DNA of 42,950 nucleotides from a virus. Taxonomy: Duplodnaviria > Heunggongvirae > Uroviricota > Caudoviricetes. The DNA is taken from the IMG/VR virus record IMGVR_UViG_2870479586_000005. The stretch is one strand, 5' to 3'. Positions 1,433 through 41,471 of this stretch are shown here, in pieces; the stretch's first letter is position 1, and each line of letters starts with the position of its first letter. A program made the translations under genes and the position numbers. The notes under the pieces were generated by a model. The model saw only the letters and a list, made by a program, of their open reading frames with translations, did not search any database and was not told the DNA's origin.

Positions 1433-1861
1433 TTAATCTAGCGAAGCTCCATAATATTCGAGCGTGAGTGAAAAGTCCTGCGATTTAGGTGTTCCGCCCA
1501 TCAAAAAGCTGTTTTGCGTTTCAGTTAGTTCTCGCAGCACCCAGTACCCTTTCACCTCCCCGGTCCCCAGCACTAGCTGCTGGGGTTCTCCCGTGTTCCC
1601 GAGCGCTCGCAAATCTGTCAACAGGCCGACGCCGCACCCGTCAAGAAATAAAGCGTTTATCTTTCCATCGATAGTAATTGTGGGGTTCGGTCGTCCGGTT
1701 ATCTGCAACGCGTCGTTTTTCCCGAATCGTGTTTGCTGAGCCCAGCGCCAGGCGTCACTACGTTGCAGTTTGTTGTACGCTACTGTTGATATAGCAAAAA
1801 TGAAATCACCCAGGCCGAGCATGATATCCTCAGCACCGTTTATTGCATCACTCATTGTCAC
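1433..1861 (-). CDS. phage tail protein U (gpU-like)
   Basis: 142-aa ORF; LQRSDAWRWA...FLDG...DFSLTL pattern recalls P2 gpU; immediately downstream of the tape measure. Confidence 0.75.
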   Translation of the reverse strand: MTMSDAINGAEDIMLGLGDFIFAISTVAYNKLQRSDAWRWAQQTRFGKNDALQITGRPNPTITIDGKINALFLDGCGVGLLTDLRALGNTGEPQQLVLGTGEVKGYWVLRELTETQNSFLMGGTPKSQDFSLTLEYYGASLD

Positions 1862-3496
1862 CCCGCCGCCGCTGGTTTATCAAACATCGCGCCACGATTG
1901 TACGAACTCGCAGCCTGTCTCAGTCCATCGAGCACCCCCGACGCTGCAGATTGTTGTATTGACTGCGGATCTGTCGCACCGACAATATTGATTTCGATTT
2001 TATTGTTTTGCTCCGGCGCAGGTGTCGAGACTGCCTGCTTCAACGTATCAATATTTAACGTCGACGAATCCAGTGCTGCAGGCGCGGTATTTTTATTTAC
2101 CATCCCGGATAATGGATTAACAAACGCGAGCATTGATTCTGCCTGAGATTTTGCCTGTTCTTGCCGTTCTGGATGCCGCATATTTTCGACAGCCTCTTCG
2201 GCTTTTGCCTTCGCAATATTATCAGCAGTCAATCCAGCGTTCGGTGAATATTTACCTCCCGAATCCATAAACTCTTGATATGCCCGATTATATTCGTCAT
2301 TATAAGTTTTCTGTTCTTCATCTGATTTTTCATCCGGAATAAGCCACTCCAGTTTCTTTACGACAGCCCATATAATCTTCCCGAATTTGACGCAACCTTC
2401 TCCAAAATTGACGATGCCATCCCACATTTTTTTCATATTTTCTGGTTTTACCCACTCAGTAATTGTGCTGACAAAACCACCCTGATTATCCTTAAACCAG
2501 GATGTAAATGTTTCACGTACTGAGTCAAACGTCGGCGCGAGTTCCCCCCGATTTTACCGAGTGTATCTGCAAGTCCCGACGTAATAGAGCCCCACAGATT
2601 TGTCACTGATACATGCGCACGCGCCGCCCCTTCCGCACCCTCTTTTGTTAACAAATTCGACTTTTGCGCGTCAGACATTGTCTGTTCCCAGCTTTTACCC
2701 GTCGCCTTCATATACGTCATGATCTTATTAGCCTCGCCCCCATGAGCTGGTCAGCGAGGCTCGCCGCTTGCTTCTCATCTTTCATTTCAGAGATGCGACG
2801 CATAACCTCATTAAACTGTTTTTCCCGATCCCAGCCAGCCATTCGTTTTTTCGTCAGGCCAATTTGAAATAACATGGGATTCAGGCTTTTTTCGTTTCCG
2901 ATTTCGCCGATTTTATTTGTAAGTTCTTCAGACAAATCCCCGATATTTTCGCCGTTCAGGCCCGCGGCTTTACCAATATTTTCCCACGCAGCGTATTTTT
3001 CGACGCCAACGCCGTAGGACTTCGCCAGACCGAGTTTTTCTGACGTCTCTGCATTCATTGCCAGCGAACCAGCTGCAGCACCGCCAATGAGCCCTGCCGC
3101 GCCAAGTGTCCCCCATTTGATACCCCGCCCCGTAGCCCTCACCGCACCTGCGGCGGCTCGTCCGCCCCATTTTGCAGCTCCTTTTGCGCGACCCGTCCAC
3201 TTCTCCAGCCGCTGTTTTTTAGCAAGTTGAGTATTCAGCGCCTCCTGGTCCTGCGTTGTCGCTTTTATCCGACGGTCCAGCTTTTGATACTGAGCAGATA
3301 AATCAGAAACGTCTTTACCTGCCAGTTTCATTGCTGCGATTTTGTCTTTTAATTTATCCTGACTTTTCGTTAATTTCCCGACAGTAGACGACGTCTGCCG
3401 AATCGCATCATTGAGTTCTGTTGTACCGCGACGAAACGACGGGTCTATTCGCCCACCGAATACAACCTGCGTTTTAAAGTTTTGAGAAATAGCCAT
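1858..3496 (-). CDS. tail tape measure protein (gpT-like), interrupted by two apparent 1-nt frameshifts
   Basis: Three consecutive minus-strand ORFs (2717-3496, 2448-2720, 1858-2436) with coiled-coil, Gly/Ala-rich tape-measure character; frames rejoin if one base is added in the C5 run at 2737-2741 and in the C6 run at 2544-2549. Confidence 0.7.
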
Positions 3497-3604
3497 CGAT
3501 TTTCATGACCTCGTTTACATAGAAATTAAAAACCCGGTACGGCAGGTCCATTTGCGTATCGGGCGGGATGGCAAGTTTTTTCGCAATAAACGGAATCAGA
3601 ATAA

Positions 3605-3886
3605 CTATATCTGATGTCGGTCTTTCGGGGGCTTTACCAGTTCGTTAAACGCGGCCTCCATTTGATCGTAATCGCACGCAGGCAGTGCATATAAATCCTC
3701 ACGCTCCAGATTTGCCAGGCGCGCCAGCATTGTCGCTGTCCGCTCTTCAAGACCACTTTTATCGTTACTGAACATAATGCGGTCGCGTAATTTTGGTTCG
3801 CGAATAGTAATTGTATCGCGGCTCTCACCCTTAATAATAAACGGGCGAGAGAGCGTAATAGTCATACTGTCTAATAATGATTCCAT
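3605..3886 (-). CDS. tail assembly chaperone (gpE-like)
   Basis: 93-aa ORF between tube and tape measure genes, the conserved chaperone position; no in-frame slippery heptamer found for an E-prime product. Confidence 0.45.
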   Translation of the reverse strand: MESLLDSMTITLSRPFIIKGESRDTITIREPKLRDRIMFSNDKSGLEERTATMLARLANLEREDLYALPACDYDQMEAAFNELVKPPKDRHQI

Positions 3887-4428: not shown

Positions 4429-5930
4429 TCAGGCTGCTTCTTTAAAAAGGGAGGCCAGTGCTTCAACTGTATAGTCATTATTAATGCGGTACATTAACGT
4501 AATTGTTTGTGCCGGAGATTTCGGACCAAAATCAACATTAATATAAAGATTACCCGCAGCCAGGCTTTCTTTTGTATTCAGCTCACTGTCTAACCACGCA
4601 CGCCCTCCGTTAATCGCACCCTGCTCCTCTAATTTGTGCAGATATGCGTTTATCGACTCGACAACGTCTGTTCCGAGGTGCAGGTCTATCGGACGATCAA
4701 TAAAATCGGTCATCATTGCCCGGGCTATAGAATCCTCAATTACGTCAGCTGTTCGACGAACGCTCTCGAAAGACCATTGCGGGCTGAGGCTGCACAAATA
4801 GTTACCCCAGTGTCTGAACCCGTCATAGCGAATAATCGTGCTGACCTGGCTGGCATTCAGCAGGTTCGCTGTGCAGTTTGTCTCACCAATAATAAAATCG
4901 TCGACTTGTTCAAGCCCTGTAACTCCGTAGATATTCTGGTTCGATTTACTCCACCAGAATCCTTTTTCATTATCAATTCGGGCTCGTAAACCAGCAGCGA
5001 TAGCTGAATACGGACGAGATAACCCACTGACATCACTCGTAGAATAAACGCGAGGTCGCAACAACTCAGCGCGTCCGCCGAGTTTTTGCCTGCGATTCAC
5101 AACGTCTGCAGGGGTAGCAGCGCGCGGAGAGTCGATATAACACACTCCCCGGAGTTTATTTGCAACCACTTCAAGCTGAGCCGCTATTTCGTCTCGTGCG
5201 CTGTAATCCGGCGCTATAATAATTCGCGGGGTAACTTCGTTAATTTGCGCTGACGTCAAAAGCGAATTAATTCCGGCGATAACATTTTCGCTCATATCAG
5301 CGTCGTCGCTACTCTCTACAACGCGAACAACAACGATTAATGCATCAGTCTGATTTAAAATATCAGAAATAGCGGGGGGCAGAGTCCCGTATTTCCCGAG
5401 CAGGGCGGCTTTCTTCTGACTACCTGCAATTAATACAGGAGAATTAATCGGGAATGCGTCATCCGTTCCACCTGATAAATTTGTAGGTGGAAGACCAAAT
5501 ACTGTACCGGTTCCGGAATGCTCGCCACCAAAAGTTACATTAATCCACTCTCCGTCTGTTTTCCCCTCTCTATATTCCTGATTCTGATCATACATTTTGC
5601 CGGGGTCATTCCCGGCTCCGTAATCATCGTTAATTTTTTTGTTCCGTCGGGCAGCGTGCTATATCCTGGAGTGCAGGTTGCGCCCTCAACTGTCATATCT
5701 ACAATTTCAACAACCCATTTATTCCCGTCGCTGCCCGGTGATACAGTTGAAAACTCAACGAGATTATCAGCCAGCGATGAGCCCCACGTTAATGATGCTC
5801 TCGTAGCCTCCGCGACGTTCGTCGCAGTACCAACAATCCCAATCACGGAAATATCTACTGTGTTGATCTCTTTTGTGCCGTCGTCGTATTCGAGCGTGCG
5901 AATACCGTGCAAAAAATTAGTTACGCTCAT
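4429..5930 (-). CDS. contractile tail sheath protein (P2 FI-like), split across two frames at a T7/A7 run
   Basis: ORF 5535-5930 begins with a sheath-like N-terminus (MSVTNFLHGIRTLEYDDGTKEINTVDISVIGIVGTA); ORF 4429-5595 carries the rest (FPINSPVLIAG...IIRYDGFRHWGN...LYINVDF); frames join with one extra base in the run at 5634-5640. Confidence 0.75.
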
Positions 5931-6316
5931 TTTATTCCTTCTCTATTTTCACCAATTCGCGTCGCTATTGCTTCTTTAAGCTCGGCCAAGTTTTCGATTT
6001 GCGCGTCAGATGCGGTTCCGGCATCTACTGCACACTGAATTGAGAATGCCTCAATTGACAGATCGCCAACAGTCCGTAATGTAGTCTGGAGTTTTTGCGT
6101 CTGCTCTTTTTTTACAAATTTAGAAATGCTCCCATAATCCCCGCTCAGCGCTCTTTCATATAAAACCCTACCGTGTTCCTCGCAATCATTTTTCATTGCG
6201 GTGAATGGAATGTCGTTTCCAATCCCGTCAATATCGCAAATAATATTTATAGATAACCCATGCTCGTCATTAAAAACAGGGTTTGTTATTTTTCTAAATG
6301 AATCAACACTTATCAT
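5927..6316 (-). CDS. tail fiber assembly chaperone (gpG/Tfa-like)
   Basis: 129-aa ORF immediately downstream of the tail fiber gene with 1-nt overlap. Confidence 0.5.
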   Translation of the reverse strand: MISVDSFRKITNPVFNDEHGLSINIICDIDGIGNDIPFTAMKNDCEEHGRVLYERALSGDYGSISKFVKKEQTQKLQTTLRTVGDLSIEAFSIQCAVDAGTASDAQIENLAELKEAIATRIGENREGIK

Positions 6317-7500
6317 TACGCAATCCTAATAGCTAAAAAACAGGCAGTCCCAATATCACCGACTCCACCTGGTGAATACGCCATAGCTCGCCATGAGCCA
6401 ACAAGTGGTGTGTCATAAAATGGTTTTGTGGCAATATCCGTGTTATATGAACCGGTATTATTTATACTAGCGTAATATAAATCACCTCCAGCCCATATGG
6501 AGCCCGGGAGTATTTGGGGTGCATGATTAATAGCGACAAGCGCATAAGTATTAACCGCGCCAACAACACCTATTTCCGGTGATGGGTCCGGTGAAAGACT
6601 TATATCTATGTTGCCATTTTCATCCGGCGACTCCCCGTTAATCGTTTTAACCGGTTTAAGATTAGCCTCATTCCAGTATTTATACGTCCGTCCGCCACAC
6701 AGTAATACCAGGCCATCATAGTGAACTCCGCGTAATCTATAAAAAACCTTCTGATTGTTTTCTCCACGGGTCGAAAAATCTAAATAATCGCCCGACACAT
6801 CTGATAAACCAGCAAGTGAAAACAACGTCAAATCAGTGCCCGGTTTGTTTATATTTATTTGTTTTTTAGAGGATAAAACGTCTTCAAAAATCACATCATC
6901 TTTAAAAGTATTTGGATGAGTAAATGCATTACCCTTATCTCTATATGCAACGTCCCCATCTATACCAATATTTTTCCGCGCAGCCTGCTGAGCAGTATCA
7001 CCATTTGCGGAAATTTCAGATAAGTTTTTACTTATCTGCAAATATTTTTTGTCAGCTTCCTCGGGAGTTACGTAGTTGTCATATACTACAACATTAACCG
7101 TAGATGTGCTGGACACCGCGAGGGTGTATTTATACGTGATTGAAATCAGCGCGCCGTTGCTGTCCGTGGGTTTTAAAATATCCGGCGAACGCGCTACAGA
7201 GTACAGTTCACCTTTATCTGTCAGTATTCCCACTTCGCGGATAGTATAGCCGCCGGTTTCCGGTGGTACGTATAGCGTAAAAATAACCTGATTACCGCTA
7301 TTTTCTGACGATTTAATATCACCGCGATACGTCTCGTGAATTAATGCTGTTCGTGCAGGGTCTGGTGTTACATCGTCGTTTCCGTTCGCGTCACCGATAA
7401 CAAATTTGTTCAGCACCACTGGAACGCCTGACGCCAGGGCGGCGGCCTCGAGTTGTGCGCCACGGTCTGTCAGTACTGCGTAAATTTTATTTTCAGCCAT
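6316..7500 (-). CDS. tail fiber protein (gpH-like N-terminal domain)
   Basis: 394-aa ORF; N-terminus (RTALIHETYRGD...YTIREVGILTDKGELYSVA) recalls the conserved N-terminal domain of P2 H; follows baseplate gene I. Confidence 0.7.
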   Translation of the reverse strand: MAENKIYAVLTDRGAQLEAAALASGVPVVLNKFVIGDANGNDDVTPDPARTALIHETYRGDIKSSENSGNQVIFTLYVPPETGGYTIREVGILTDKGELYSVARSPDILKPTDSNGALISITYKYTLAVSSTSTVNVVVYDNYVTPEEADKKYLQISKNLSEISANGDTAQQAARKNIGIDGDVAYRDKGNAFTHPNTFKDDVIFEDVLSSKKQININKPGTDLTLFSLAGLSDVSGDYLDFSTRGENNQKVFYRLRGVHYDGLVLLCGGRTYKYWNEANLKPVKTINGESPDENGNIDISLSPDPSPEIGVVGAVNTYALVAINHAPQILPGSIWAGGDLYYASINNTGSYNTDIATKPFYDTPLVGSWRAMAYSPGGVGDIGTACFLAIRIA

Positions 7501-9428: not shown

Positions 9429-10299
9429 ATATGAGTGTGTCCGTTGTACGTTGTGCGGACCTCAGTCATTGTGCCTTGTCGGTCCTGCACCTCTTGCCCT
9501 GCTAACACACTACCGCGAGTTGTGATATTACCTGTTCCACCGTTATCTCCAGTGACAGAAATATCGTTACGGAATGTCGCTAATTTATCTACTACTAATG
9601 TCTCGGTAATATGCGTTGGACCAGCTAGTGTTATACCACCCGGAGCCCACGCGCTGATTGTTTGAGCTGTCAGCGATATTCTGTTCGCAGCAGTAACACT
9701 AACAGAACTCGTTGCTATAACGTTCACTAAATCAGCATGTGCGTTAATTGTATCTGTCGCTGTGACATTAATAATATCAGCGTCTGCGTTAATTAATTTC
9801 CCACCATGGATATTAACTACATTTTCGCTATTAATAGTAACATCTGCGCGTCCAAATATTTCTATTTCAGACTCACCGAGTATTTTTACCACGCCGTCCG
9901 GTACGCCCTGCCATGTCAGAGTGTGATTTTTTGTGTTATACGTCATCGTAGCCCCGTCACAGTATGCAGTGACATGATCATGGGGTCATTGCTTGGCGGA
10001 GCTTTGTCGTCAATGTGCAGCCCGAGCATAACTACACCGTTCCGCGTATCCCCACCCTCAGAAACAACAGTAACGGGATCGCCCACTGATGGTGCGCTCC
10101 AGTCGACGCGTTCTGAGGTGGCGTGAGTAAACCACTGCAGCCAGCCTGACTGGTGTTCGCCACCAAATGAGACTCGGCAGCGTGGAGGATTCATTTTAAC
10201 TGCAGCTATCGTGCCGCGTTTAACTGCGTCACGCAGCCTGCGCGCGTTCTCCGCTGCAGCATATTCATCGTCCGATTGGGCCATAATAGTCGCCCTCAT
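9383..10299 (-). CDS. baseplate hub/spike protein V (gpV-like), encoded as two ORFs
   Basis: ORF 9943-10299 resembles the gpV N-terminal region (CRVSFGG...WLQWFTHA...WSAPSVG); ORF 9383-9946 resembles the C-terminal spike (beta-helical repeats, HTH metal-site motif); junction is an ATGA overlap beside a G4 run at 9982-9985. Confidence 0.65.
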
Positions 10300-11213: not shown

Positions 11214-11477
11214 TCAGGTCTCCTGCCCTTCTTTTGTAAAATTACGGCGCTTAATGAACGGCTTGATTCGTTTATCTACGGCCTTATGATTTTTAGCTGC
11301 CAGTGCAGTCAAAATCATTCCTGCTGAAATTCGGTGCATATGTTTTGCAGTTCGGTTCAGCGCCCTGTTGTATACCATTAACATTTGATGTTGCGTCGCG
11401 CTGATTTCGACTCTGAGCTGCTCCAGCGCCGAAACATCGATATCGAACATCTGCGCGTTACTACGTAAATCGGCCAC
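11214..11477 (-). CDS. hypothetical virion protein
   Basis: 87-aa ORF downstream of the FII-like gene. Confidence 0.3.
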   Translation of the reverse strand: MADLRSNAQMFDIDVSALEQLRVEISATQHQMLMVYNRALNRTAKHMHRISAGMILTALAAKNHKAVDKRIKPFIKRRNFTKEGQET

Positions 11478-12339: not shown

Positions 12340-13374
12340 TTACGCGATTTTTACGACAACGAACGCGTCGGCGTCCGTGAGGACCATTGCTGGCGCGGAT
12401 TGCGTCATTGTTTGCGTCACTGCCGGATCACCGGTAGTGGTCCAGACTTTTGGATAGCGCGTCGCTTCGGAAATACCCTCTTTCAGCGCGTCTTCGTCCT
12501 GAATTGCGCCATAAGTGCGGAGCCCGCGGTTTTTTGTGTTGCCAAGGATCATCGTGTTATCCGGCATATAACGCGTTTCAGTGTCTGTTACCGGGTCGAG
12601 GTATTGCCCTTTGTAGACAAACAGCGCAGTGTCGCCGTAGTAGCCTTTAAAGCTGACAACGTCGCCCAGGTTTTTCAGCGCGACCTCGAGCTGGCTGTTT
12701 GAGCCACGGCGCGTATCCAGTGCCGTCCAGAATTTTTTAAAACGCTTCAACTGCTTCCAGGCTTTACCATCCATGATGATCACGTTAACAGCACCGGAGG
12801 CGAGGTCTGCATAGGATTCGATATCGTCGCTCGGGTCATACGTTTCCGCGTCCTGCGTAGACCAGGCTGTCGAACCAGACTGAGTGACGTTATTCGTCGC
12901 GCTGCGGCTCATGTCGATCTCATAGGTCTCGATATTGCTGCCGGAAACTGTGTATTTACCGTACAGAACCGCCTGCACAGCCTGAAATTCTTCGAGCTGG
13001 CTGATGCTCAGTTCCTCATCGAGCAAGTTCTGCATGATGATTTTTGCACGACGTTCGACCGGTGTTTCCGGCTGGCCAATCTGCTCTCCGGCGGCGCGCT
13101 TGATGCTCATATTCGGATTGATCGTGTGTTTGGGTTTCGTGTAACCCGGCTTAAAATGGTTAGTTGAATAGCCGCGGGTGCGATCTACTTTGCCGGTGAT
13201 CATCGGCGCGCAATACACCGCCATATTGACCTTACCCGGGATTTTATCCAGAAAAACCTCTTCGCTCGTAAACGTGTAGGTCTCACGGAAAAACAGTCTT
13301 AAAAACAACGAATTGAACTTAAATACCTGCTGTGTCGCGGTAATCAATTCTGACGTAGTAAACGAATCGCTCAT
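12340..13374 (-). CDS. major capsid protein (lambda gpE-like)
   Basis: 344-aa ORF; long colinear resemblance to lambda E (FKFNSLFLRLFFRETYTFT..., RGLRTYGAIQD..., YPKVWTTTGDPA...). Confidence 0.9.
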   Translation of the reverse strand: MSDSFTTSELITATQQVFKFNSLFLRLFFRETYTFTSEEVFLDKIPGKVNMAVYCAPMITGKVDRTRGYSTNHFKPGYTKPKHTINPNMSIKRAAGEQIGQPETPVERRAKIIMQNLLDEELSISQLEEFQAVQAVLYGKYTVSGSNIETYEIDMSRSATNNVTQSGSTAWSTQDAETYDPSDDIESYADLASGAVNVIIMDGKAWKQLKRFKKFWTALDTRRGSNSQLEVALKNLGDVVSFKGYYGDTALFVYKGQYLDPVTDTETRYMPDNTMILGNTKNRGLRTYGAIQDEDALKEGISEATRYPKVWTTTGDPAVTQTMTQSAPAMVLTDADAFVVVKIA

Positions 13375-13762: not shown

Positions 13763-15069
13763 TATTCATCCCCTAAAATTGAACGCCCTGCAGCAACCAG
13801 CATCGAGACGTTTGCGGTTGTTCCTGTTGCCGTAGTACTGCCAGCATCCTGAATAGTCGCTGGTGATTCAGTGCTCATTAGTGTATCGAGCGCCGTTTCT
13901 GTCCGCGCCTGCGCCGTTTTAGGTGCTGCAGCGAGGACTACCTGCGCCTGCCCGACCGTCATCCCGGGGACGCCAGCGAGCGCTTTTGCCTGCGCCTCGC
14001 GCCCAACAGCTTCGGGACAATTGATGATGGCCATCACACGCGCCAGTTCGCTTGATGCGGCGTCCGCGCGAATCTGCTCCGTGTTAAACTCAACCTGCGC
14101 GACAGTAGTCGTGGTCGCGGTTTGTTCTGTGGTCGTGGTCTCCGCCGTGGTTTCTGTACCAGACATAAAGCGCTCCATTTTTGGTTTCAGTGCGTCGGCC
14201 ATCACTGCGATAGCGTCCGCGTAATTAACGAGTTGATCAGCGAGACCAGATTTAATCGCGTCCGCGCCGATAAATACTGCAGCTTCCGTGGCCAGCACCC
14301 TGGATTTTTTCAGCCCGGTATAATCCGAGACTTTTTGCGCGAACTGCTCGCGCGTGCTGTTAATACTCAGCTGGAATTCGTCGCGAACGTCGCCTGGCAG
14401 CTGGGAATACGGGTTCCCGTCAACTTTGTGCGCGCCGGCGTAAATCAGCGTCACGTCGACGCCAGCAATCTCCAGCGCTTTTTCGACGCAGCGGTGAGCC
14501 ATCAGGACACCGATTGAACCAACTGTGCCTGTCTGCGTTATCAGCCGGCGCGAACACGCTGACGCCAGCAAATAGGCAGCGCTGCAGGCCGTATCGCTGG
14601 CCAGCGCCCACACAGGTTTTTGCTCTCGCGCCCGGGCGATTAAATCAGCAGTATCAAACGCGCCGGCGACTTCACCGCCAGGGGAGTCAATATCAAGCAG
14701 GACCCCTCTTACATCGGGATCAGAAATCGCCTGCTGCAGGCGTTTTGCGATTCCGTCGTAACCGCTCATCCCGCTAACTGGGTTGATATAACCCAATTTA
14801 TGAACCAGCGTCCCGGTAACCGGCAGAACGGCTATACCACGCTCCACGCGATACGATTTCTGGCGTGTTCGCTCGCTGCTGTCCCACCCCATCGCGAGCG
14901 CGTTCATTTCGTCGCTGTTCATTACCTCTCCAGACGCTGTATCAATCAGTCGCCCGGTACCGAACCGGTCGCTCAGCGCCGAAAAAAATACCCGCGCGTA
15001 GGTGGGCTCCAGCAAAAGCGGTTGATTGAACGCCCTGGCGGCGAGGTGCGGAAAATTGTTCCACGGCAT
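13762..15069 (-). CDS. head maturation protease / scaffold (lambda gpC-like, S49 peptidase family)
   Basis: 435-aa ORF between portal and decoration genes; ClpP/S49-like core with Ala/Thr-rich C-terminal scaffold-like region. Confidence 0.8.
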   Translation of the reverse strand: MPWNNFPHLAARAFNQPLLLEPTYARVFFSALSDRFGTGRLIDTASGEVMNSDEMNALAMGWDSSERTRQKSYRVERGIAVLPVTGTLVHKLGYINPVSGMSGYDGIAKRLQQAISDPDVRGVLLDIDSPGGEVAGAFDTADLIARAREQKPVWALASDTACSAAYLLASACSRRLITQTGTVGSIGVLMAHRCVEKALEIAGVDVTLIYAGAHKVDGNPYSQLPGDVRDEFQLSINSTREQFAQKVSDYTGLKKSRVLATEAAVFIGADAIKSGLADQLVNYADAIAVMADALKPKMERFMSGTETTAETTTTEQTATTTTVAQVEFNTEQIRADAASSELARVMAIINCPEAVGREAQAKALAGVPGMTVGQAQVVLAAAPKTAQARTETALDTLMSTESPATIQDAGSTTATGTTANVSMLVAAGRSILGDE

Positions 15070-16643
15070 CAGTTACCTCCCCAGCCGTTATCGTTGGTAT
15101 TTGAGGGGTGAGATACAGACCATGACGGTTCGCTCAGCCCCATTTCACGCCGGCGCTGAATTTCGTATTCCTGCTGCTCCATAACCTCCTCGTAATCCTG
15201 TCCCTGCAGCGCCAGTTCGTTCTGATACGTGCTGAGGCCAGTTGTGATGCGCATGGCGCTCTCCTGAACCTCTTTCAGCCCATCAATCGCCATGCGACCA
15301 GCGCCGATCCAGAGCGCGTTCGTCCAGGAGTTCCGCGCCTCATAAAACGACCGGACAGCTGAGCGTGGCAGGGTGATAATTCCGCGTGCCAGCGCCTCTT
15401 CAAACCAGCAGCAGAACATCAGCGACGCCTGTCGCGCGGCGATAAAACGTCGACGCCCCATGAAAAATCGCCAGCTGACGTTAGCACTGGCCCGGGCGCT
15501 GGAGTAACTGACCTGGCTGTAGTCCCGGCTAAGTTCTTCGTATGACGCGCCAACGCCAGCTGCAACGTAACGCAGGAGTGATTTTTCCAGTGAACTAAAA
15601 CCAGCATCAGCATTCTGAGCGGTCTGTAAACTGAGTTTGTCGCCGGGATGCAGGTGGGGAACTTTCACACCACCGAGCTTGATATTTGCGCCGTTGTAGT
15701 ACGTCACGTAACTCTGAATAAACGAATTCAGCGGGTTCGAGTCGATATCAGTACCCGCGCCGGCGATATATTCAAACGCCTGCTGGCTGTCGAGCTCTGA
15801 TTCGATTGTCGCGGCATACATCGCCTTCACAATGGCGCTCTGCAGTTGTGTTTGCTGCAGTGTGTCGAGCATTTTCAGGCGCTCCATGACGCTGTAAAAA
15901 ATATTGTCCCCGCGGGTCTGTCCGTCCTCGAGCGGCTCGAATATGTGGATGAATGCGTGTCTGCCGCTGCTGAGCTGTGCTGGGATACGCCGGCATTTAC
16001 CGACTCCGCCGAGAGGGTAAGTATCCTCGGCTATCCAGTACCCGACCGCGGCCCCGTTTTTATCGATATCAACACCGGCGCGGCGAAATTGAGTGTCAGC
16101 TGCGTAACCCGGATTTCGAATCCGTTTCGGTGAGACCATTTTGAATCGCGTCCGAAAAACGCTGCCGGCACTACTCTCCCATACTGGTTGTACGCAGGTT
16201 TCACCGTTGAAAGCGTGAGTAGCCACGCCCTCGCGGATCATCATTGTGAACGTCCGTTTCCGCTCGATATCAATCGTGCAGTGAGGGTCCTCGGCGTATT
16301 CAGTCCACGCTACCTCGACGTCACGCGCCAGCGCCCTGGCGTCCTCGCGAGATATGCCGAGGTAACGCCAGTTAGGGCGATAACTCAACTTAAACAGATT
16401 GCCGACGATATGATCCTGGTGCAGCTGCACGGCGTTCGACGCGACGCCGTTATTGCGAACGAGATCGTCTGCTCGCGCGTTACCGCGATAAAAATTCGGC
16501 AACAGTGCTGCGTCGGCGCTCTGCTGTGGTGCGTTCCAGTCAATCAGCTGGCCACCGAAACCGGGACCGCCGCCGTTATACCCCGCGTAACGGCGTAGTG
16601 GCGTTTTACCGTCAGGCCCGAGCAGCTGCTGCGGAGCAGTCAT
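15069..16643 (-). CDS. portal protein (lambda gpB-like)
   Basis: 524-aa ORF; extensive resemblance to lambda B (LLGPDG...YAGY.GGG.GFGGQL..., FTMMIREGVA.HAFNGE, QSAIVKAMYAATIESELD, WIGAGRMAIDGLKEVQE). Confidence 0.9.
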   Translation of the reverse strand: MTAPQQLLGPDGKTPLRRYAGYNGGGPGFGGQLIDWNAPQQSADAALLPNFYRGNARADDLVRNNGVASNAVQLHQDHIVGNLFKLSYRPNWRYLGISREDARALARDVEVAWTEYAEDPHCTIDIERKRTFTMMIREGVATHAFNGETCVQPVWESSAGSVFRTRFKMVSPKRIRNPGYAADTQFRRAGVDIDKNGAAVGYWIAEDTYPLGGVGKCRRIPAQLSSGRHAFIHIFEPLEDGQTRGDNIFYSVMERLKMLDTLQQTQLQSAIVKAMYAATIESELDSQQAFEYIAGAGTDIDSNPLNSFIQSYVTYYNGANIKLGGVKVPHLHPGDKLSLQTAQNADAGFSSLEKSLLRYVAAGVGASYEELSRDYSQVSYSSARASANVSWRFFMGRRRFIAARQASLMFCCWFEEALARGIITLPRSAVRSFYEARNSWTNALWIGAGRMAIDGLKEVQESAMRITTGLSTYQNELALQGQDYEEVMEQQEYEIQRRREMGLSEPSWSVSHPSNTNDNGWGGN

Positions 16644-16873
16644 AATCGAACTCCCACGGGCCGACGGCGTCCCGTACTCAGACCGAGCTGTGATTTCAGC
16701 TCGATAATGTACGTTCGGAGCTGCTCAATACTCGCCTGCGAGTATTGATAGCTCCGGTTATTTCCTGCTGAATCGCCGTGAGACAGCGACACGGTCGATT
16801 TACCCGTTAATAATTTGTGCAGAGCGATTTCCGCTTCCAGCAGTCGTTCTGTTAAAACCTCGCGCGACGTCAT
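16640..16873 (-). CDS. head-tail joining protein (lambda gpW-like)
   Basis: 77-aa ORF between terminase and portal genes; coupled overlaps with both. Confidence 0.75.
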   Translation of the reverse strand: MTSREVLTERLLEAEIALHKLLTGKSTVSLSHGDSAGNNRSYQYSQASIEQLRTYIIELKSQLGLSTGRRRPVGVRL

Positions 16874-18834
16874 TAGCTCCCTCCGAGCATTCTGGCCATC
16901 TCCTCGAGAGACAGTTTGTTTTGTGATTTTTTCCGTTGCTCAGCGAGCGTCTCGAGATTGAGCTGGAAACGAATTTTACTGATACGCAGCGCTGCCAGTC
17001 CGTACACCCAGCAGTCGAGCGCCTCATTTCGCCGGCCCTGGTTGTCCCAACGATAAACGACGCGACCGTTAATGAGTTTCGGGATCAGAACCTCGGAGAC
17101 GAGCTGTTTTGCCTCTGTCGTGCTGAATATTTCGTCGTCGTTGGGAAAATGAATCGCACCTGGTGTCGCCGATTTGGAGTCGGGTTCCAGCTGCAGGCGC
17201 ATTGCGAGCAGGTCTTTCGCTGTATCTGTCCCAATCAACGACAAATACACTTTATTCGCGTTACGGGTACGAGGCATATTTACGACCGGCTGGCCGTATG
17301 AGCTCGCACCCTTGATTGGAATGACCCACAGCGGACCGAGTTTCAGCGAGCGGTTATAAACGACCTGCGCATCTATGCCGCCGGTATCCCACGCCCAGCG
17401 ACTGACGCCGATTGTGGTCCCGTCGCTGCGCCGGTATTGTTTGCGAATCACGCCGTCGACGCGCTGCAGCGTATCCTCCTCGTCGTAGCGACCGAGGACG
17501 ATTGTTTTATCAATCAGCCAGCACTCCTCCTCGGCTCCCCAGCCCCACACGTAACACTCGTAGCGCCCGGACGTCTGAGAGTCGATGCCGCCGGTTATAT
17601 AAACAACACCGTCAGGAACCTGGCTGGCGTATCTTTCCCGGCGATTAACGAGAATATCGTGTTCCAGCTGCTCGCTGGCCACTTCGCTCCAGAGTTCGCC
17701 GAGCGTAGTGTTATGAAACGTTTTTTCTTTGAGTGGTTCGCCCTTCGCTTTCAGCCACTCGCTGACAATCTCGCCCCAGCCGTCGAGATTCAGTGAATAC
17801 AGGGCGTTTATCACGATCGCCGCGTGTTTCGGCGCGCGAACGACGCCACCGTCATGATCAAAAAAATGGATTCCGTCTCGGGTCCAGGTGCAGTCCTCGG
17901 CTATCCAGCGCCCCCCGAGCTCCATTTTTTCGAGATCGCGATAGTAAAAATGCTCCGGGCAGTGGCAGCACTGGTAATACGCGGACGACGATTTCGACTC
18001 GTTGGTCTGCAGGCTGTCATCCCACTTGAGACCGTATTCGATACCGTCGAAACCAAATACCAGGGTCTGCTCCTCGCTACAATGCGGACACTTCAGGTAA
18101 AAACGAAATGTCAGATCAGCAGCGTCTTCCAACATTTCGATATGACTTTTACCGGTGACTGTCGGTGTCGAACCGAAAATCGCCTTCGGGTACGCTGCCC
18201 CTTTAATTCGAACGAGCGCCAGTTCGATGGGCGAGCCCTCGCCTTTGCCTTTTTTGGCAACTTCCAGCGGCCAGCCGTCAACTTCGTCACCCTCGACAAC
18301 CTGTTTCGTTAGTCGCCGGAAATTTCCTGGCGTACTCGCGCCGCGAAAATCAATAATCGCGCCGTTCATTTCTTTACGCTGGAGATTGTTACGCTCGTTG
18401 CTTTTATCCCAGTCGGGGAAAATTTTCTGAATCACCGGCATTTCGGCGATAGCGGGGTCAACCTCATCGGCGACAAATCCATCCGATTCGTCATCGATAG
18501 GCTGATAGACCACGGCACTACGTTTTTTGTGCTCAGCGAAATAGAGCAGCGCCGCGACGAGTATTTTTGTATAACCGAGACGAGCTGATTTGCGAACAGA
18601 CACGATTTTTATCGCGTCGTTAGTCATCATATTGAGCATCACTACCTGGACCGGCTGAGTCGTCCAGTGGCCAGCGATGTGGCTGGAGCCCTCAGGGAGA
18701 TAAAAATATTTATCAGCCCACTTAACCCCCGTCATCGGTATCGTCACGCGCAAGGGATTCAACCCTGTCGAGATCGCGTTCGATATCGCTGACATCGTAA
18801 TCGCTGAAATCGACTCGTATGTCTGCCAGTTCAT
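16873..18834 (-). CDS. terminase large subunit (lambda gpA-like)
   Basis: 653-aa ORF; resemblance to lambda A including CPHC...C motif, GIDSQ and ALDC motifs; true start probably downstream of 18834 since the ORF overlaps the small-subunit gene by about 110 bp. Confidence 0.9.
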   Translation of the reverse strand: MNWQTYESISAITMSAISNAISTGLNPLRVTIPMTGVKWADKYFYLPEGSSHIAGHWTTQPVQVVMLNMMTNDAIKIVSVRKSARLGYTKILVAALLYFAEHKKRSAVVYQPIDDESDGFVADEVDPAIAEMPVIQKIFPDWDKSNERNNLQRKEMNGAIIDFRGASTPGNFRRLTKQVVEGDEVDGWPLEVAKKGKGEGSPIELALVRIKGAAYPKAIFGSTPTVTGKSHIEMLEDAADLTFRFYLKCPHCSEEQTLVFGFDGIEYGLKWDDSLQTNESKSSSAYYQCCHCPEHFYYRDLEKMELGGRWIAEDCTWTRDGIHFFDHDGGVVRAPKHAAIVINALYSLNLDGWGEIVSEWLKAKGEPLKEKTFHNTTLGELWSEVASEQLEHDILVNRRERYASQVPDGVVYITGGIDSQTSGRYECYVWGWGAEEECWLIDKTIVLGRYDEEDTLQRVDGVIRKQYRRSDGTTIGVSRWAWDTGGIDAQVVYNRSLKLGPLWVIPIKGASSYGQPVVNMPRTRNANKVYLSLIGTDTAKDLLAMRLQLEPDSKSATPGAIHFPNDDEIFSTTEAKQLVSEVLIPKLINGRVVYRWDNQGRRNEALDCWVYGLAALRISKIRFQLNLETLAEQRKKSQNKLSLEEMARMLGGS

Positions 18835-20917: not shown

Positions 20918-21255
20918 TATTTCATCCCCTTATCTGATTTCCATAAACGAGCTTGTGACATGATCCGCAACAGTGATGTAACGCTGATTACTGATGCAAC
21001 CAGTGCACCAATGGCGGGAGAGACTTTTACTGTTACGGGAGGGTTCAGGTGACTCAGCACCGCGTTCAGAATACCGGTAATGATGGCTGATGCTGTTTCA
21101 GCGCAATACACACCACCAACAAATGAAATGAGTGCGAAAATAACCTGCTTCCAGAATCGATGCTGCCCGGATGACAACACATAGAGAGCTGCGCCTGCCA
21201 GCGCACAGATCATCACTGCAGGTGTTGCCTCAGGAAATAACGCAGCAAACGTCAC
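20917..21255 (-). CDS. putative holin
   Basis: 112-aa ORF (GTG start in track, internal Met nearby) with multiple TM helices; first gene after the Q-like gene. Confidence 0.5.
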   Translation of the reverse strand: MTFAALFPEATPAVMICALAGAALYVLSSGQHRFWKQVIFALISFVGGVYCAETASAIITGILNAVLSHLNPPVTVKVSPAIGALVASVISVTSLLRIMSQARLWKSDKGMK

Positions 21256-21496
21256 CCCGCCGAGCCAGCAGCAACGCCAGCGGTTAGAGGTTCAGACATG
21301 ATTTTTCCTGATTCAGAAACGACAAAACCCGCCGTGGCGAGGTTCTTAGAGATTTGGCAACATACCAAATTAGCGTTAAATATGGCCTATTTTGTTCGGT
21401 TTTGCAAGCATTATACGCAAACGTCGTCTAAATGGTTCTGATAATGATGCAAAGTTGCAAGAAGTGCCACTTCATCAAGTGCTCTCACCGCCTCTT

Positions 21497-22081
21497 TCAT
21501 TCCTGCCCAGTGCGGGAGTATGTTTCGCACCAGGTGGAACGAGAAACAGACAACATTCCAGCTAGCGCAGATCCGGCCATCTCCTTAAAATCCTCGCGTT
21601 TATTTGCTGCTGCGACCGCCTGCACGGACAACCACACCAACGAAAGCAGGCGCTTGACTACTTTTCTCTGAGTTGACGCAGAGATGTTTCCTTTATAGCG
21701 ACTCCAGACAGCCTCACAAATAGCTGTTTGGTGTTTGAACGCCAGGTTACCACCGTAGCAATAGCGCAACCACGCCTGCTGGCTAACGTCGAGCGCGTTC
21801 ACAGCGCGGCGCCACGATGAATCAGCGAATTCAAAATCATTCATCGGCGGCGCGGGGCGACGTCTGCTGAAACTTTCCAGGGCATAAACTGGCGTAACCA
21901 GAGCATCAACGGTCCGGTCCTCCAGTTGCACACGATGAATATGTTTGCGTGGGTATGCGTTTTTATCTGCTGGCGGGTGCTCACACAATGCTTCCAGTTG
22001 CCCCTTAGAACCACCAGACAAATCCCGCAATGCAGCGCGCAGTTTTATGCGGGTATATTCCAATAAATACTCGTTACTCAT
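21497..22081 (-). CDS. putative late-gene regulator (antiterminator Q-like by position)
   Basis: 194-aa ORF immediately upstream of the lysis genes and downstream of nin-like genes; no sequence motif recognised. Confidence 0.4.
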   Translation of the reverse strand: MSNEYLLEYTRIKLRAALRDLSGGSKGQLEALCEHPPADKNAYPRKHIHRVQLEDRTVDALVTPVYALESFSRRRPAPPMNDFEFADSSWRRAVNALDVSQQAWLRYCYGGNLAFKHQTAICEAVWSRYKGNISASTQRKVVKRLLSLVWLSVQAVAAANKREDFKEMAGSALAGMLSVSRSTWCETYSRTGQE

Positions 22082-26085: not shown

Positions 26086-26509
26086 CTCTCTCGGTCCAAC
26101 AGTCTTTCGAAAGCCCTGATCAAAGGGCCTTGATAAATTAGCAGTGCGTTGAAAACAGATAGTTATTCCCATCAGTTCCAACGTAATACACATCAAAAAA
26201 ATCACCATTCTTTTGCTCTACGTCAACACCTACCCTTAAAAAAATAATTCTCCAAGAATGAGAAAGTTATTGTGTGTATTAGATAAGATATGAGCTGACA
26301 CATCTATGGCGTGGAGCCAAACCTAATATGACAGTCCGCTCTGTGCCAAGAGCGAACATTACAAACACACTAAAATTTATGTTTGTACTTCGCTGTAGCC
26401 ACCTAAAAGTATTATTGCGGGTGGTTTCGTGACAATGTTAGATATTCTTCATTTTGAATTGATTACTGAATTAAGATAAAACCACCCGAATTAAAACTAT
26501 CAAAAGTAT

Positions 26510-27391
26510 CTATGGTTGTTCATCACTCTCTTCTGAAAGTATTTGTACTACTTGTCCACACTCTCCACATACTACGTGTAATTGACTATCTTCTTCGGAC
26601 TTGAAAATCTCACTAACTAAGCTATGACAGTTAGGGCATTTTATCTCGTTATCAAAACCTATGAATTTAAGGAATAAGTTTTGAATTAATGAAACTGCAG
26701 TGCAAGTGAGTATAAGGCAAATTTTAGCGTCAGGAATGTTTTTGTTTGAAGAGTGCACCGTCTCTGCGGAAAAATCCCATGCAGACTCAATCGTTGAGCG
26801 GCAATATTTTCTGAGACTTGAGTTTCGTTTTCCTGCGGCATACAACCCAATAATAATTCGGCAAATATTTTTAAAGTCAGCTGCTTTAATATTTTCTTTT
26901 TTTAATATATCCTCATGAGTTTTATAAAGGTGAGCAGCAAGCTCAACCATGCTCTCTCTACAAGTTAGTCCAATACTTTGAATATCTTCAGGGGCCTTAA
27001 TATTATTCAGAGCAACAGCAGAAGCATTTAACCTCCGGCTAATAGAACGAAGCATATCTATATCTAAAGGTAACTCATCAATAACATGTTTGAAATCATT
27101 GCTATGTCTTGCTTGTAGTCTTTGAGTTATACCCAAATGAAAAGAATATGCTTCATCAGCAGAAAAGAAAAACTCATTTTGAGTGTATAAGTTTAAAGGA
27201 ACGTTTTCACCTTCAGCAACCCACCAGTTACCATCATTTTTTGTTCTGACGTTCCAAATGTTAACCTCAAAACCTAAATCATTAAATGTTTGCTCAACTT
27301 GCATGTTTTTTATGTTTTCTATATTTTGAGTTTTTAAATATTCAGTAATTCTTTTCTCAGCATCGATTCTGTATTCTGGTGTCATGTGCAA
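26510..27391 (-). CDS. hypothetical protein with C-terminal zinc ribbon
   Basis: 293-aa ORF in AT-rich DNA; C-terminal CPNC...CGEC four-Cys motif. Confidence 0.55.
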   Translation of the reverse strand: MHMTPEYRIDAEKRITEYLKTQNIENIKNMQVEQTFNDLGFEVNIWNVRTKNDGNWWVAEGENVPLNLYTQNEFFFSADEAYSFHLGITQRLQARHSNDFKHVIDELPLDIDMLRSISRRLNASAVALNNIKAPEDIQSIGLTCRESMVELAAHLYKTHEDILKKENIKAADFKNICRIIIGLYAAGKRNSSLRKYCRSTIESAWDFSAETVHSSNKNIPDAKICLILTCTAVSLIQNLFLKFIGFDNEIKCPNCHSLVSEIFKSEEDSQLHVVCGECGQVVQILSEESDEQP

Positions 27392-27449
27392 TCCCTTTTA
27401 ATAAGATACTAAAAGTAAAAGCGCATTATAGCATAACACATACAATGCG

Positions 27450-27695
27450 TTAATGCGTATGCTTGTGCCCTGTAATGATTTCAAAATGAACGTTTGCATA
27501 CAACTGTTTTTTGATCTGGTTGTATTGCAACAGAATGATTTCCACTGCTCGTTCATAGCTGATCTTCAGTTTAGTTAGCATGTCCGTTCTGTGCCTTTTA
27601 AGTTCATTCTTGCCATACTTAGCCGACTTGAATGCTATTTCTTCTATCACTTTTTTAGTTGGCATATTGGGGCTAGAGTTCCGTTCCTCGCTCAC
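27450..27695 (-). CDS. small hypothetical protein
   Basis: 81-aa ORF (GTG start in track) just upstream of the 293-aa gene; start uncertain. Confidence 0.3.
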   Translation of the reverse strand: MSEERNSSPNMPTKKVIEEIAFKSAKYGKNELKRHRTDMLTKLKISYERAVEIILLQYNQIKKQLYANVHFEIITGHKHTH

Positions 27696-27862
27696 GGCAG
27701 ACCTTAAGCTCAGTTAGTTCGTCTGCTCCGTGCCAGAGCGAACGTTGTAAACACAACATTGCTTTAGTCGACAGGGGCCAATAGGCTACTGCGTACCCTG
27801 TGCTAGAGTAAGTATCAAATAGGTATTATCCATGTATATGACTGCTCGATGATGCATCATAA

Positions 27863-28942
27863 TCACAAACGTTCATGATCAAGACTGTTTTCATCATTAT
27901 TTAAGTCATTAAGCATTTGAAGTGCGTCACGAGTACGTTCATAATTACTTTCAGGGTATAATCTAAACTTCATATTTTCCAAATTAATTAATTTTCTTTT
28001 TAATTTGAAGGAATCGTTAGAAAGTGACATTTCGTAAAAATCAATATCCCCCTGTCTGGATTGTAATGCACTCATAACGGAAAACTTAGCAGATTCTTTG
28101 AACCTCAAACCGAATGTAACATCGCTTAACCGAAATGGTGAGTTCTGTAAACCTTGATTATTAATAACTCGATATTCATTTTCATATTTCCAAGAAGGAG
28201 CTTTGCTGAGAAGAATGACCCTATCAATCTCTTTTTTGGCAGTATTCTTTATATTATCATTGCTGCCAAATAACATATCATGAACTTGTTGAGTTCTAAT
28301 AAATCGATTCCCTTTGTAATCAACTGGATGGATATCTAAAGAGTCATTTTCAGAAGTATCATATCCAATACAAAATCCCTTATGTTGATCAGCATAATGC
28401 GACCACATTAAGGGGCAGTTAAATTTTCTTGCTAATGAAAGAACACCAACCTCATAATTTTTTAGCAAGTATCTTTTAATATAAAAACTGGCGCTAGCAT
28501 AAAAATCATCACCATAATTATCAACATCCCACGAAATATTATCAATTAATTTTCGAGCTTCGCTTTCACCTAGCATTTCAATTTTCTCTAATGTCCTTAG
28601 ACCTTTATATTTAATTTTTTTTGCTGCTTTCGCTAGTTCCTTTTGATGATTTTCTTTTACTAATTTATGAAGGATAGAGTTCAATTCATTGACATTATTG
28701 ATGTCGTTTAACACGGAAGGATTACAATCCAAAGGGTCATTGAATGTTGTTGGATCAGCAAAATACAGTCTATCGCTTACAAGCAAGTCAAGACTATCAA
28801 CACTAAAGCTTTTATATTTATATAATCGAGAGGGAATATTCTGTATCATCACTTTTATCTCATAAATTTTTTTGATATTATCTGCCAATTCTAGCCCCAT
28901 GGGCAATAGCAAAATCGAAAAATACTCTCTACGTAAGGGCAA
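27863..28942 (-). CDS. DUF2971-like protein (candidate defence-associated)
   Basis: 359-aa ORF in AT-rich DNA; RLYKYKSF...LYFADPTTFNDPLDC...PLMWSHYADQHKGFCIGYD...KYENEYRV motifs recalled as DUF2971 hallmarks; start may be at an internal Met. Confidence 0.5.
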   Translation of the reverse strand: MPLRREYFSILLLPMGLELADNIKKIYEIKVMIQNIPSRLYKYKSFSVDSLDLLVSDRLYFADPTTFNDPLDCNPSVLNDINNVNELNSILHKLVKENHQKELAKAAKKIKYKGLRTLEKIEMLGESEARKLIDNISWDVDNYGDDFYASASFYIKRYLLKNYEVGVLSLARKFNCPLMWSHYADQHKGFCIGYDTSENDSLDIHPVDYKGNRFIRTQQVHDMLFGSNDNIKNTAKKEIDRVILLSKAPSWKYENEYRVINNQGLQNSPFRLSDVTFGLRFKESAKFSVMSALQSRQGDIDFYEMSLSNDSFKLKRKLINLENMKFRLYPESNYERTRDALQMLNDLNNDENSLDHERL

Positions 28943-29514
28943 GCCCTTTCCCCATGGATATTCATCAAATTAAGCGGGTGTACTTAGGTCATATTGACCT
29001 GTTCCTAATTGACGATACACCTCGATGTTCATTAAGCCACTTAGAGTGCTGAGACAGATATGAACTGCAGCTTTTCGCTCACTGCTGCCCTTCAGTAAGC
29101 GAAAAAATGCCTACTCGGTGCCATATACAGTCATGGTTATTAACTACAGGGAATAATTCCACACTGAAATTAAATGTCTGCCTTTTACAGTAGAAATAGT
29201 TTCTCCAGGACACTATCCATTGCCGGGCACAATCACTCGGGGTATAACGATATAAAATATGTTCATGATAGTGCAGGTTCGTATATTAAGTTCAGCAGCG
29301 AAAACATGCCTTACAGGTTTCCGGTTTTGGGAGCGTCGTTACAGGATCCTGCGCATACCGTTCCCATCTGTTGAATTAAAGGTTTCACAGCCTTTGCCGA
29401 TATCGCCTTTTACCTTGCCTGTGATGCGTTCAGTGCTCAGCGTTGTTTACTGTAGCTCTCGGAACTGATTACAGACCGCGTCTTAAAAACCAATCCTTAC
29501 TCTAAAGGGAATTC

Positions 29515-38529: not shown

Positions 38530-38859
38530 ATGACCATTTTTAACGGCTTGTTAGAAGCGAAAAAAGGCGCGCTCAAAAACGGTGCGATCCCGGCGCTGGC
38601 CATCGCCATCGACGCCCCTAACAAAAAAGTTGCCGAGAACATCATCATCGGCAAATTGTGGGAAGCCTACCCTGACCACGGCGACAACTATTTCAAACCT
38701 AAAATCTGGGAGGATGCCCCAGGCCAACCGCGCCCAGGCGTCGGTGAGTTTGATGAGACGTTTGCCACAGAACACAGTTTTGATGGCGAAAAATGGGTAG
38801 TTAACCCCCCGCTGATTCAGATAGCGGTTCAGCAGATATCGCACAGGTTAACGACCTGA
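38530..38859 (+). CDS. hypothetical early-left protein
   Basis: 109-aa ORF; ATG directly follows the repeated TAATGAGGAAAGACCA initiation module. Confidence 0.45.
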   Translation: MTIFNGLLEAKKGALKNGAIPALAIAIDAPNKKVAENIIIGKLWEAYPDHGDNYFKPKIWEDAPGQPRPGVGEFDETFATEHSFDGEKWVVNPPLIQIAVQQISHRLTT

Positions 38860-41311: not shown

Positions 41312-41471
41312 TGCTTAAACTCACATTAAAGCGTGGTGACGCGGTTCACCTGGTACTTGCCGATGGAACCAACGGCATTATTGAAGCACGGAGCCGCTGC
41401 GAACTTGGGCTACACCTGCCAGAAAACATTAAGGTCACGCGGGAGAAATCGGCATTCCCCCACCAGAACTG
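41310..41471 (+). CDS. small hypothetical protein (53 aa)
   Basis: ATG overlapping the upstream stop (TAATG); MLKLTLKRGDAVHLVLADG... ; below the ORF-track cut-off. Confidence 0.25.

Follow-up and report, generated by a model that had tools for sequence, protein, structure and literature searches.

The DNA analyzed here, which we call the window, is a stretch of 42,950 nucleotides from IMG/VR virus record IMGVR_UViG_2870479586_000005, and it consists of prophage DNA only (~43 kb), with its cuts at gene boundaries, the gpD stop codon at one end and the integrase stop codon at the other. The prophage lies in E. coli between tRNA-Leu (beside pgsA and uvrC) and yecA. The head module is lambda-like (gpW, portal, S49 protease, capsid, and FI), and the tail module is P2-like (baseplate V/W/J/I, fiber, sheath, tube, chaperone, a tape-measure candidate, gpU, X, and D); by gene content, the predicted virion has a P2-type contractile tail and a lambda-type head. 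Within the tail module, the genes and features of concern are the following.

1433..1861, minus strand: gpU-like tail protein gene (PF06995), directly downstream of the tape-measure gene
1858..3496, minus strand: putative tail tape-measure gene, a single 1641-nt ORF of 546 aa that appears in the window as three ORFs
1858..2436, minus strand: ORF fragment 3, 192 aa, the C-terminal portion, with an internal Met as its start
2448..2720, minus strand: ORF fragment 2, 90 aa, mid-protein, between both lesions
2544..2549: lesion 2, C6 (G6 on the coding strand), probable true length 7
2717..3496, minus strand: ORF fragment 1, 259 aa, residues 1-253 of the tape measure plus 6 residues read out of frame
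2737..2741: lesion 1, C5 (G5 on the coding strand), probable true length 6; ORF fragment 1 stops 7 codons on
3497-3640, minus strand: -1-frame ORF that overlaps the 3' end of the chaperone gene and ends just beyond the tape-measure ATG
3605..3886, minus strand: tail assembly chaperone gene (P2 gpE-like, PF10109), directly upstream of the tape-measure gene

Three-frame translation revealed that the tape-measure protein passes from frame 1 to frame 0 to frame 2, that is, through two successive one-base deficits. These frame switches map to the C5 run at 2737-2741 and the C6 run at 2544-2549, two of the only four C/G runs of at least five bases in 1858-3496. When one C is added to each, a 1641-nt ORF results whose one stop codon is terminal; it encodes 546 aa and matches the intact protein of L017 (positions 14006-15646), an independent assembly of the same phage, at 100% identity. 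Further, in a coding-strand alignment with three relatives, length differences occur solely at these two runs (G6 against G5 in the window, and G7 against G6 in the window). The first-pass annotation had proposed that the three ORFs become one upon addition of a C at the C5 and C6 runs, and this proposal is borne out in full, by an ORF of 546 aa that matches the intact gene at 100%. The reading of three ORFs as one is not a product of chance.

The tape-measure label, in turn, is upheld by gene order and finds no counterpart in a curated family. Specifically, the gene is preceded by a PF10109 chaperone with an overlapping -1-frame ORF and followed by a PF06995 gpU. The -1-frame ORF at 3497-3640 matches the layout of the P2 E/E' programmed frameshift; the permitted interval of the overlap yielded no canonical XXXYYYZ slip site, and the candidate slip region includes AAG CCC CCG AAA. 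For the 546-aa protein itself, neither Pfam nor NCBIfam returned a family above cut-off, the PDB held no sequence match, P2 gpT showed no significant similarity (BLASTP E = 0.14), and the assignment obtained was to PHROG 3654, 'unknown function'. A tblastn search of phage genomes recovered distant relatives at 30-35% identity in Hafnia, Citrobacter, and many Vibrio phages, most of them labeled 'TMhelix' or 'coil containing protein', and a single named tape-measure match, a partial one to a Vibrio phage gene at 34% identity. Because no curated family matches the protein, the name is drawn from gene order only; on these positional grounds, it is likely a tape measure, albeit one outside the curated tape-measure families. 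At ~0.15 nm per residue, 546 aa would predict a tail of ~80 nm. The family also marks an annotation gap, in that a widespread E. coli prophage family goes without a curated tape-measure name despite its tape-measure gene order.

The gene region is present in 453 of 5,426 RefSeq complete E. coli genomes (by a 2001-base query, the best matches to which extend 2003 bases), as well as in four deposited 'phage' records, and the protein family in about 430-450 of the same 5,426 genomes. In relatives, the gene is one 1641-nt CDS (e.g., WP_021560836.1), annotated 'hypothetical protein', and the intact 546-aa gene is present in L001, L003, L004, and L014-L019. With 91-nt probes, the C6 of the window at site 2 was found in 6 of 431 RefSeq complete E. 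coli genomes, the other 425 differing, and its C5 at site 1 in 2 of 428, the other 426 differing. Among the matches listed, all 54 differing genomes at site 2, and all 58 at site 1, have one extra base, and each relative's record that we examined combines the longer run with an intact gene. No RefSeq complete E. coli genome has both short runs (431 at site 2 and 428 at site 1 were probed). A DNA pattern with both lesions likewise had 0 matches in the sets of viral and genome contigs searched, and neither the 259-aa fragment nor the 388-aa sheath fragment occurs on record as an exact protein. We did not take vB_EcoM-720R5 and the related 'phage' records as evidence of viability, as the papers in which they came up concern phages in the genomes of clinical isolates and CRISPR systems.

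Programmed recoding and phase variation are two of the biological explanations considered. In the first, the full-length protein would be rescued from a genuinely split gene at the C/G runs, either by ribosomal frameshifting or by transcriptional slippage, much as the adjacent chaperone gene belongs to a family with a programmed -1 frameshift (P2 E/E'). Recoding would, however, need two independent +1 corrections, and neither the split-ORF arrangement nor a conserved slip site was found in the relatives, where 425/431 and 426/428 RefSeq genomes lack the short run. Because the relatives, in every record examined, encode one continuous 1641-nt ORF, recoding is effectively refuted, and we assign it a negligible probability.

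In the second, phase variation, the coding-strand G6 and G7 tracts would act as contingency sites, and reversible slippage there would turn the tape-measure gene, and thereby tail production, off and on. Public assemblies contain the exact 192-aa C-terminal fragment in 296 indexed blocks, such that the site-2 contraction recurs, and the short site-2 allele stands in 6/431 RefSeq genomes. Yet the short alleles are rare (~1.4% of genomes at site 2 and ~0.5% at site 1), those fragment records that lie on short contigs may be contigs starting inside the gene, and the fragment carriers L009, L011, and L012 have broken housekeeping genes (tyrP, araF, or ftnB). The same type of contraction also affects 11 unrelated runs of the window, and contingency tracts are typically longer than 6-7 G. 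Two-way variation in tract length, by which a phase-variable locus would be known, was not seen, there being no expansions among the records listed.

The genomes that carry the short site-2 allele bear further on this explanation. The three carriers that we examined, the near-clonal ST131 genomes A1.S1.18, 447, and UID2404240038, each have additional single-base differences and show other long-read error signatures; in A1.S1.18, for example, there is an A-run deletion at the start of flhC. In 447 (L034) and UID2404240038 (L035), we observed single-base insertions and G-to-A differences concentrated at GAGACC, at L036-equivalent positions 9500, 9854, 11563, 11670, and 36439. Such motif-linked errors would be typical where methylated sites are basecalled, and the GAGACC-linked differences in these two RefSeq 'complete' genomes look like motif-specific (methylation-related) basecalling error. 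A different case is CP103710, which over 40 kb departs from three sister ST131 genomes by the site-1 contraction and nothing else. Since CP103710 shows no other difference, we allow for real slippage there and give phase variation a very small, though nonzero, probability. The first-pass annotation had named phase-variable tail length as a remote option, and remote it stays, given a rare short allele, carriers marked by error, and the same change at 11 unrelated runs; we regard it as highly improbable for the window. Only marginally less improbable is the broader idea that slippage is genuinely frequent at the G6 and G7 tracts and sometimes switches tail assembly off in lysogens. If that were true, a few public short alleles (e.g., that of CP103710) would be real and heritable, and would constitute a low-frequency on/off switch for the tail.

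Beyond the tape-measure gene, an alignment of the whole window with its best RefSeq relative (98.9% identity) revealed a dozen one-base gaps, all of them in homopolymers and all of them losses on the side of the window. The ratio of substitutions to indels private to the window, relative to four RefSeq relatives, was dropped as a measure, as the 191 private substitutions fell in clusters at third codon positions and reflected mosaic recombination. Clusters of substitutions with spacings in multiples of three set the window apart from the four RefSeq relatives at 7150-7450, 12790-13350, 21650-22000, and 39640-40200; we interpret such clusters as mosaic recombination tracts under purifying selection, and they are real because the assemblies identical to the window also have them. 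None of the four diverged comparators, one of which (L016) has 610 private substitutions, had a private single-base frameshift, and their private indels were either in-frame or inside divergent tracts. Given the mosaic recombination tracts in the best RefSeq relative, the comparison was moved to sequence-identical assemblies, of which L017 and L018 were found through the tail-fiber protein of the window, and L022, L024, and L025 through its 291-aa cargo protein; the LprI-family and cI-like proteins were too common to pull out the window's own lineage. These assemblies cover the window as follows.

L017, ENA metagenome scaffold of 318 kb: 17,498 nt of the window, 0 mismatches
L018, Logan SRR8942362: 15,840 + 2,688 nt, 0 mismatches
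L022, Logan SRR35780240: ~20.9 kb, 1 mismatch, at 18809
L024, GCA_031703225.1 (NCBI draft): ~20.9 kb, 1 mismatch, at 18809
L025, same ENA scaffold as L017: 12,263 nt, 1 mismatch, at 18809

Two of these searches led to observations on the prophage itself. In L018 (positions 15800-17000 of a 31-kb contig of SRR8942362), the phage end with gpD and the 139-aa gene is joined directly to the integrase end, through a shared core of 125 nt in which the 3' end of tRNA-Leu is contained. This attP-like junction points to an excised or circular form of the phage, at 100% identity to the window, as the molecule sequenced in L018, where the prophage reaches ~0.9 kb past the start of the window. The 291-aa protein, which has C-terminal CxxC pairs, is encoded together with a DUF2971 protein on 3 kb of cargo at 26092-29114. 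The closest RefSeq relatives lack this cargo and have a GIY-YIG nuclease and other genes there instead, and the site, between the ImmA/IrrE-family and LprI-family genes, is a predicted variable moron or defense-type hot spot.

Across 40,072 nt, 1 substitution and 12 one-base gaps separate the window from the independent assemblies. Each of the 12 is a base absent from the window that shortens a homopolymer, and a 13th contraction, at 38810, was seen against four relatives of ~99% identity. All 13 changes of run length are contractions, with 0 expansions. They are listed below with their probable true run, the run in the window, and the gene affected.

1386: T8, T7 in the window
2549: C7, C6 in the window, tape-measure gene
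2741: C6, C5 in the window, tape-measure gene
5605 (run 5602..5605): G5, G4 in the window, tail sheath gene
9985 (run 9982..9985): G5, G4 in the window, baseplate V gene
11228 (run 11226..11228): C4, C3 in the window, 226-aa hypothetical gene
21258 (run 21255..21258): C5, C4 in the window, holin gene
21330: C4, C3 in the window
21516 (run 21514..21516): G4, G3 in the window, antiterminator Q gene
27777: G5, G4 in the window
32463: C4, C3 in the window
38810 (run 38805..38810): C7, C6 in the window, 738-aa YdfE_N-domain gene, by comparison with the ~99%-identity relatives only
41461 (run 41457..41461): C6, C5 in the window, 60-aa hypothetical gene

Ten of these lesions disrupt nine genes (the tape measure twice, the sheath, baseplate V, the holin, Q, the YdfE_N gene, and three short hypothetical genes), and three are intergenic. 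The sheath gene (4429-5931, minus strand), which encodes 500 aa in relatives, illustrates the effect, as the lesion at 5602-5605 splits it into ORFs at 4429-5595 (388 aa) and 5535-5930 (131 aa). In the sequence-identical assemblies, the tape-measure gene encodes 546 aa and the sheath gene 500 aa. Nine unrelated genes and three intergenic sites mean that the lesions are blind to gene function. They are not blind to run length, as is apparent from the share of runs contracted, computed on a rebuilt, corrected sequence of the window.

G/C runs, length 4: 4/121 (3%)
G/C runs, length 5: 4/24 (17%)
G/C runs, length 6: 2/7 (29%)
G/C runs, length 7: 2/2 (100%)
G/C runs, length 8: none present
A/T runs, length 4: 0/367
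A/T runs, length 5: 0/159
A/T runs, length 6: 0/66
A/T runs, length 7: 0/23
A/T runs, length 8: 1/3

The rate of contraction thus climbs with the length of the G/C run, and none of the 615 A/T runs of 4-7 bases is contracted.

These counts also bear on genuine decay, in which the tape-measure gene would be a true pseudogene of a decaying prophage, and real single-base slippage deletions would have inactivated it along with the sheath, baseplate, holin, and other genes. Prophages do decay, G/C homopolymers are natural slippage sites and the more slippage-prone runs in vivo, and the site-1 contraction of CP103710 could be an instance of it. Some relatives, moreover, have real-looking lesions, namely an internal stop in Q (L004 and L014) and another in the portal gene (EC28). 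Against this, the window shows 1 substitution against 12 one-base contractions in 40 kb when set beside identical copies elsewhere, whereas in E. coli mutation-accumulation studies, substitutions exceed small indels several-fold to approximately ten-fold, even in mismatch-repair mutants. A real accumulation of 13 slippage deletions would therefore be expected to come with many substitutions, and one was seen. The window also has 0 expansions and lacks larger deletions, IS insertions, and nonsense substitutions, its A/T runs of 4-7 are spared (0/615), and the frame past each lesion is perfectly preserved, to the extent that the repaired tape-measure protein is 100% identical to the intact copy. 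Hence, the degraded prophage that the first-pass annotation had offered as an alternative does not stand, as 40 kb contain one substitution beside 12 contractions and the sequence past the frameshifts is free of decay; we consider it very unlikely, if slightly less so than the slippage-based switches discussed above.

Several lesions in the relatives are observations in their own right. The internal stop in antiterminator Q occurs in 22KM0354 and MEI3O-23, and that in the portal gene in EC28 (L004:22469-23140 and L015:29057-30631). As these are real-looking inactivating substitutions, some copies of the prophage are genuinely defective, by another route. In addition, the gpD-like gene downstream of X encodes 257 aa (774 nt), not 347 aa, in many ST131 assemblies (L005, L006, and L034-L036), and this short form, in contrast to the lesions of the tape-measure gene, may be a real truncation specific to its lineage.

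Taken together, we hold that both frameshifts in the tape-measure gene are very probably errors of the sequence record and not features of the organism, and we infer homopolymer under-calling as their technical cause. Under-calling was the cause that the first-pass annotation had listed first, and it gains strength from the same lesion at 11 more runs and from identical assemblies with longer runs and intact genes. The discrepancies from the identical copies are single-base homopolymer changes, essentially without substitutions, and the probability of a loss grows with run length and ignores gene function. The sequencing platform or a consensus step would have under-counted homopolymers systematically, G/C runs above all, and one base would have been dropped from each of 13 runs in the 43-kb prophage. 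Two of the dropped bases would fall in the putative tape-measure gene, with coding-strand tracts of G6 and G7 written as G5 and G6, and the real gene would be one intact 546-aa ORF between the tail assembly chaperone and gpU genes. If so, the record misstates at least nine genes of a prophage that is otherwise intact and probably functional, and pseudogene counts, 'defective prophage' calls, and protein clustering drawn from it would be wrong. The 13 listed positions would let the whole record be corrected, beyond the tape-measure gene.

Three known systems offer points of comparison. First, the P2 operon FI-FII-E-E'-T-U-D has the same order as the tail genes here, which run sheath, tube, PF10109 chaperone with a -1-frame ORF, long protein, PF06995 gpU, X, and D, with an Ala/Gly/Lys-rich long protein in the position of gpT. 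The two differ in that P2 gpT has 815 aa, against 546 aa for the protein of the window, and in that the head module of this phage is lambda-like rather than P2-like. Second, contingency loci likewise have a poly-G tract within a coding region, the length of which sets the reading frame; the tracts in the tape-measure gene, in contrast, are short (6-7), their variant is rare, and it co-occurs with assembly errors. Third, the closest likeness in kind is to sequencing error. The errors that remain in long-read bacterial assemblies concern homopolymer length for the most part and are chiefly false deletions, according to PMC8812927 and PMC12007338. As far as such accounts describe them, the errors of long-read-only or flow-based assemblies are likewise single-base false deletions in homopolymers, at a rate that rises with run length, and they are likewise scattered over genes, give rise to adjacent ORFs, and are absent from independent assemblies. 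The window departs from the nanopore case in PMC12007338 in its strong bias toward G/C over A/T runs, as it was A/T runs that were most affected there.
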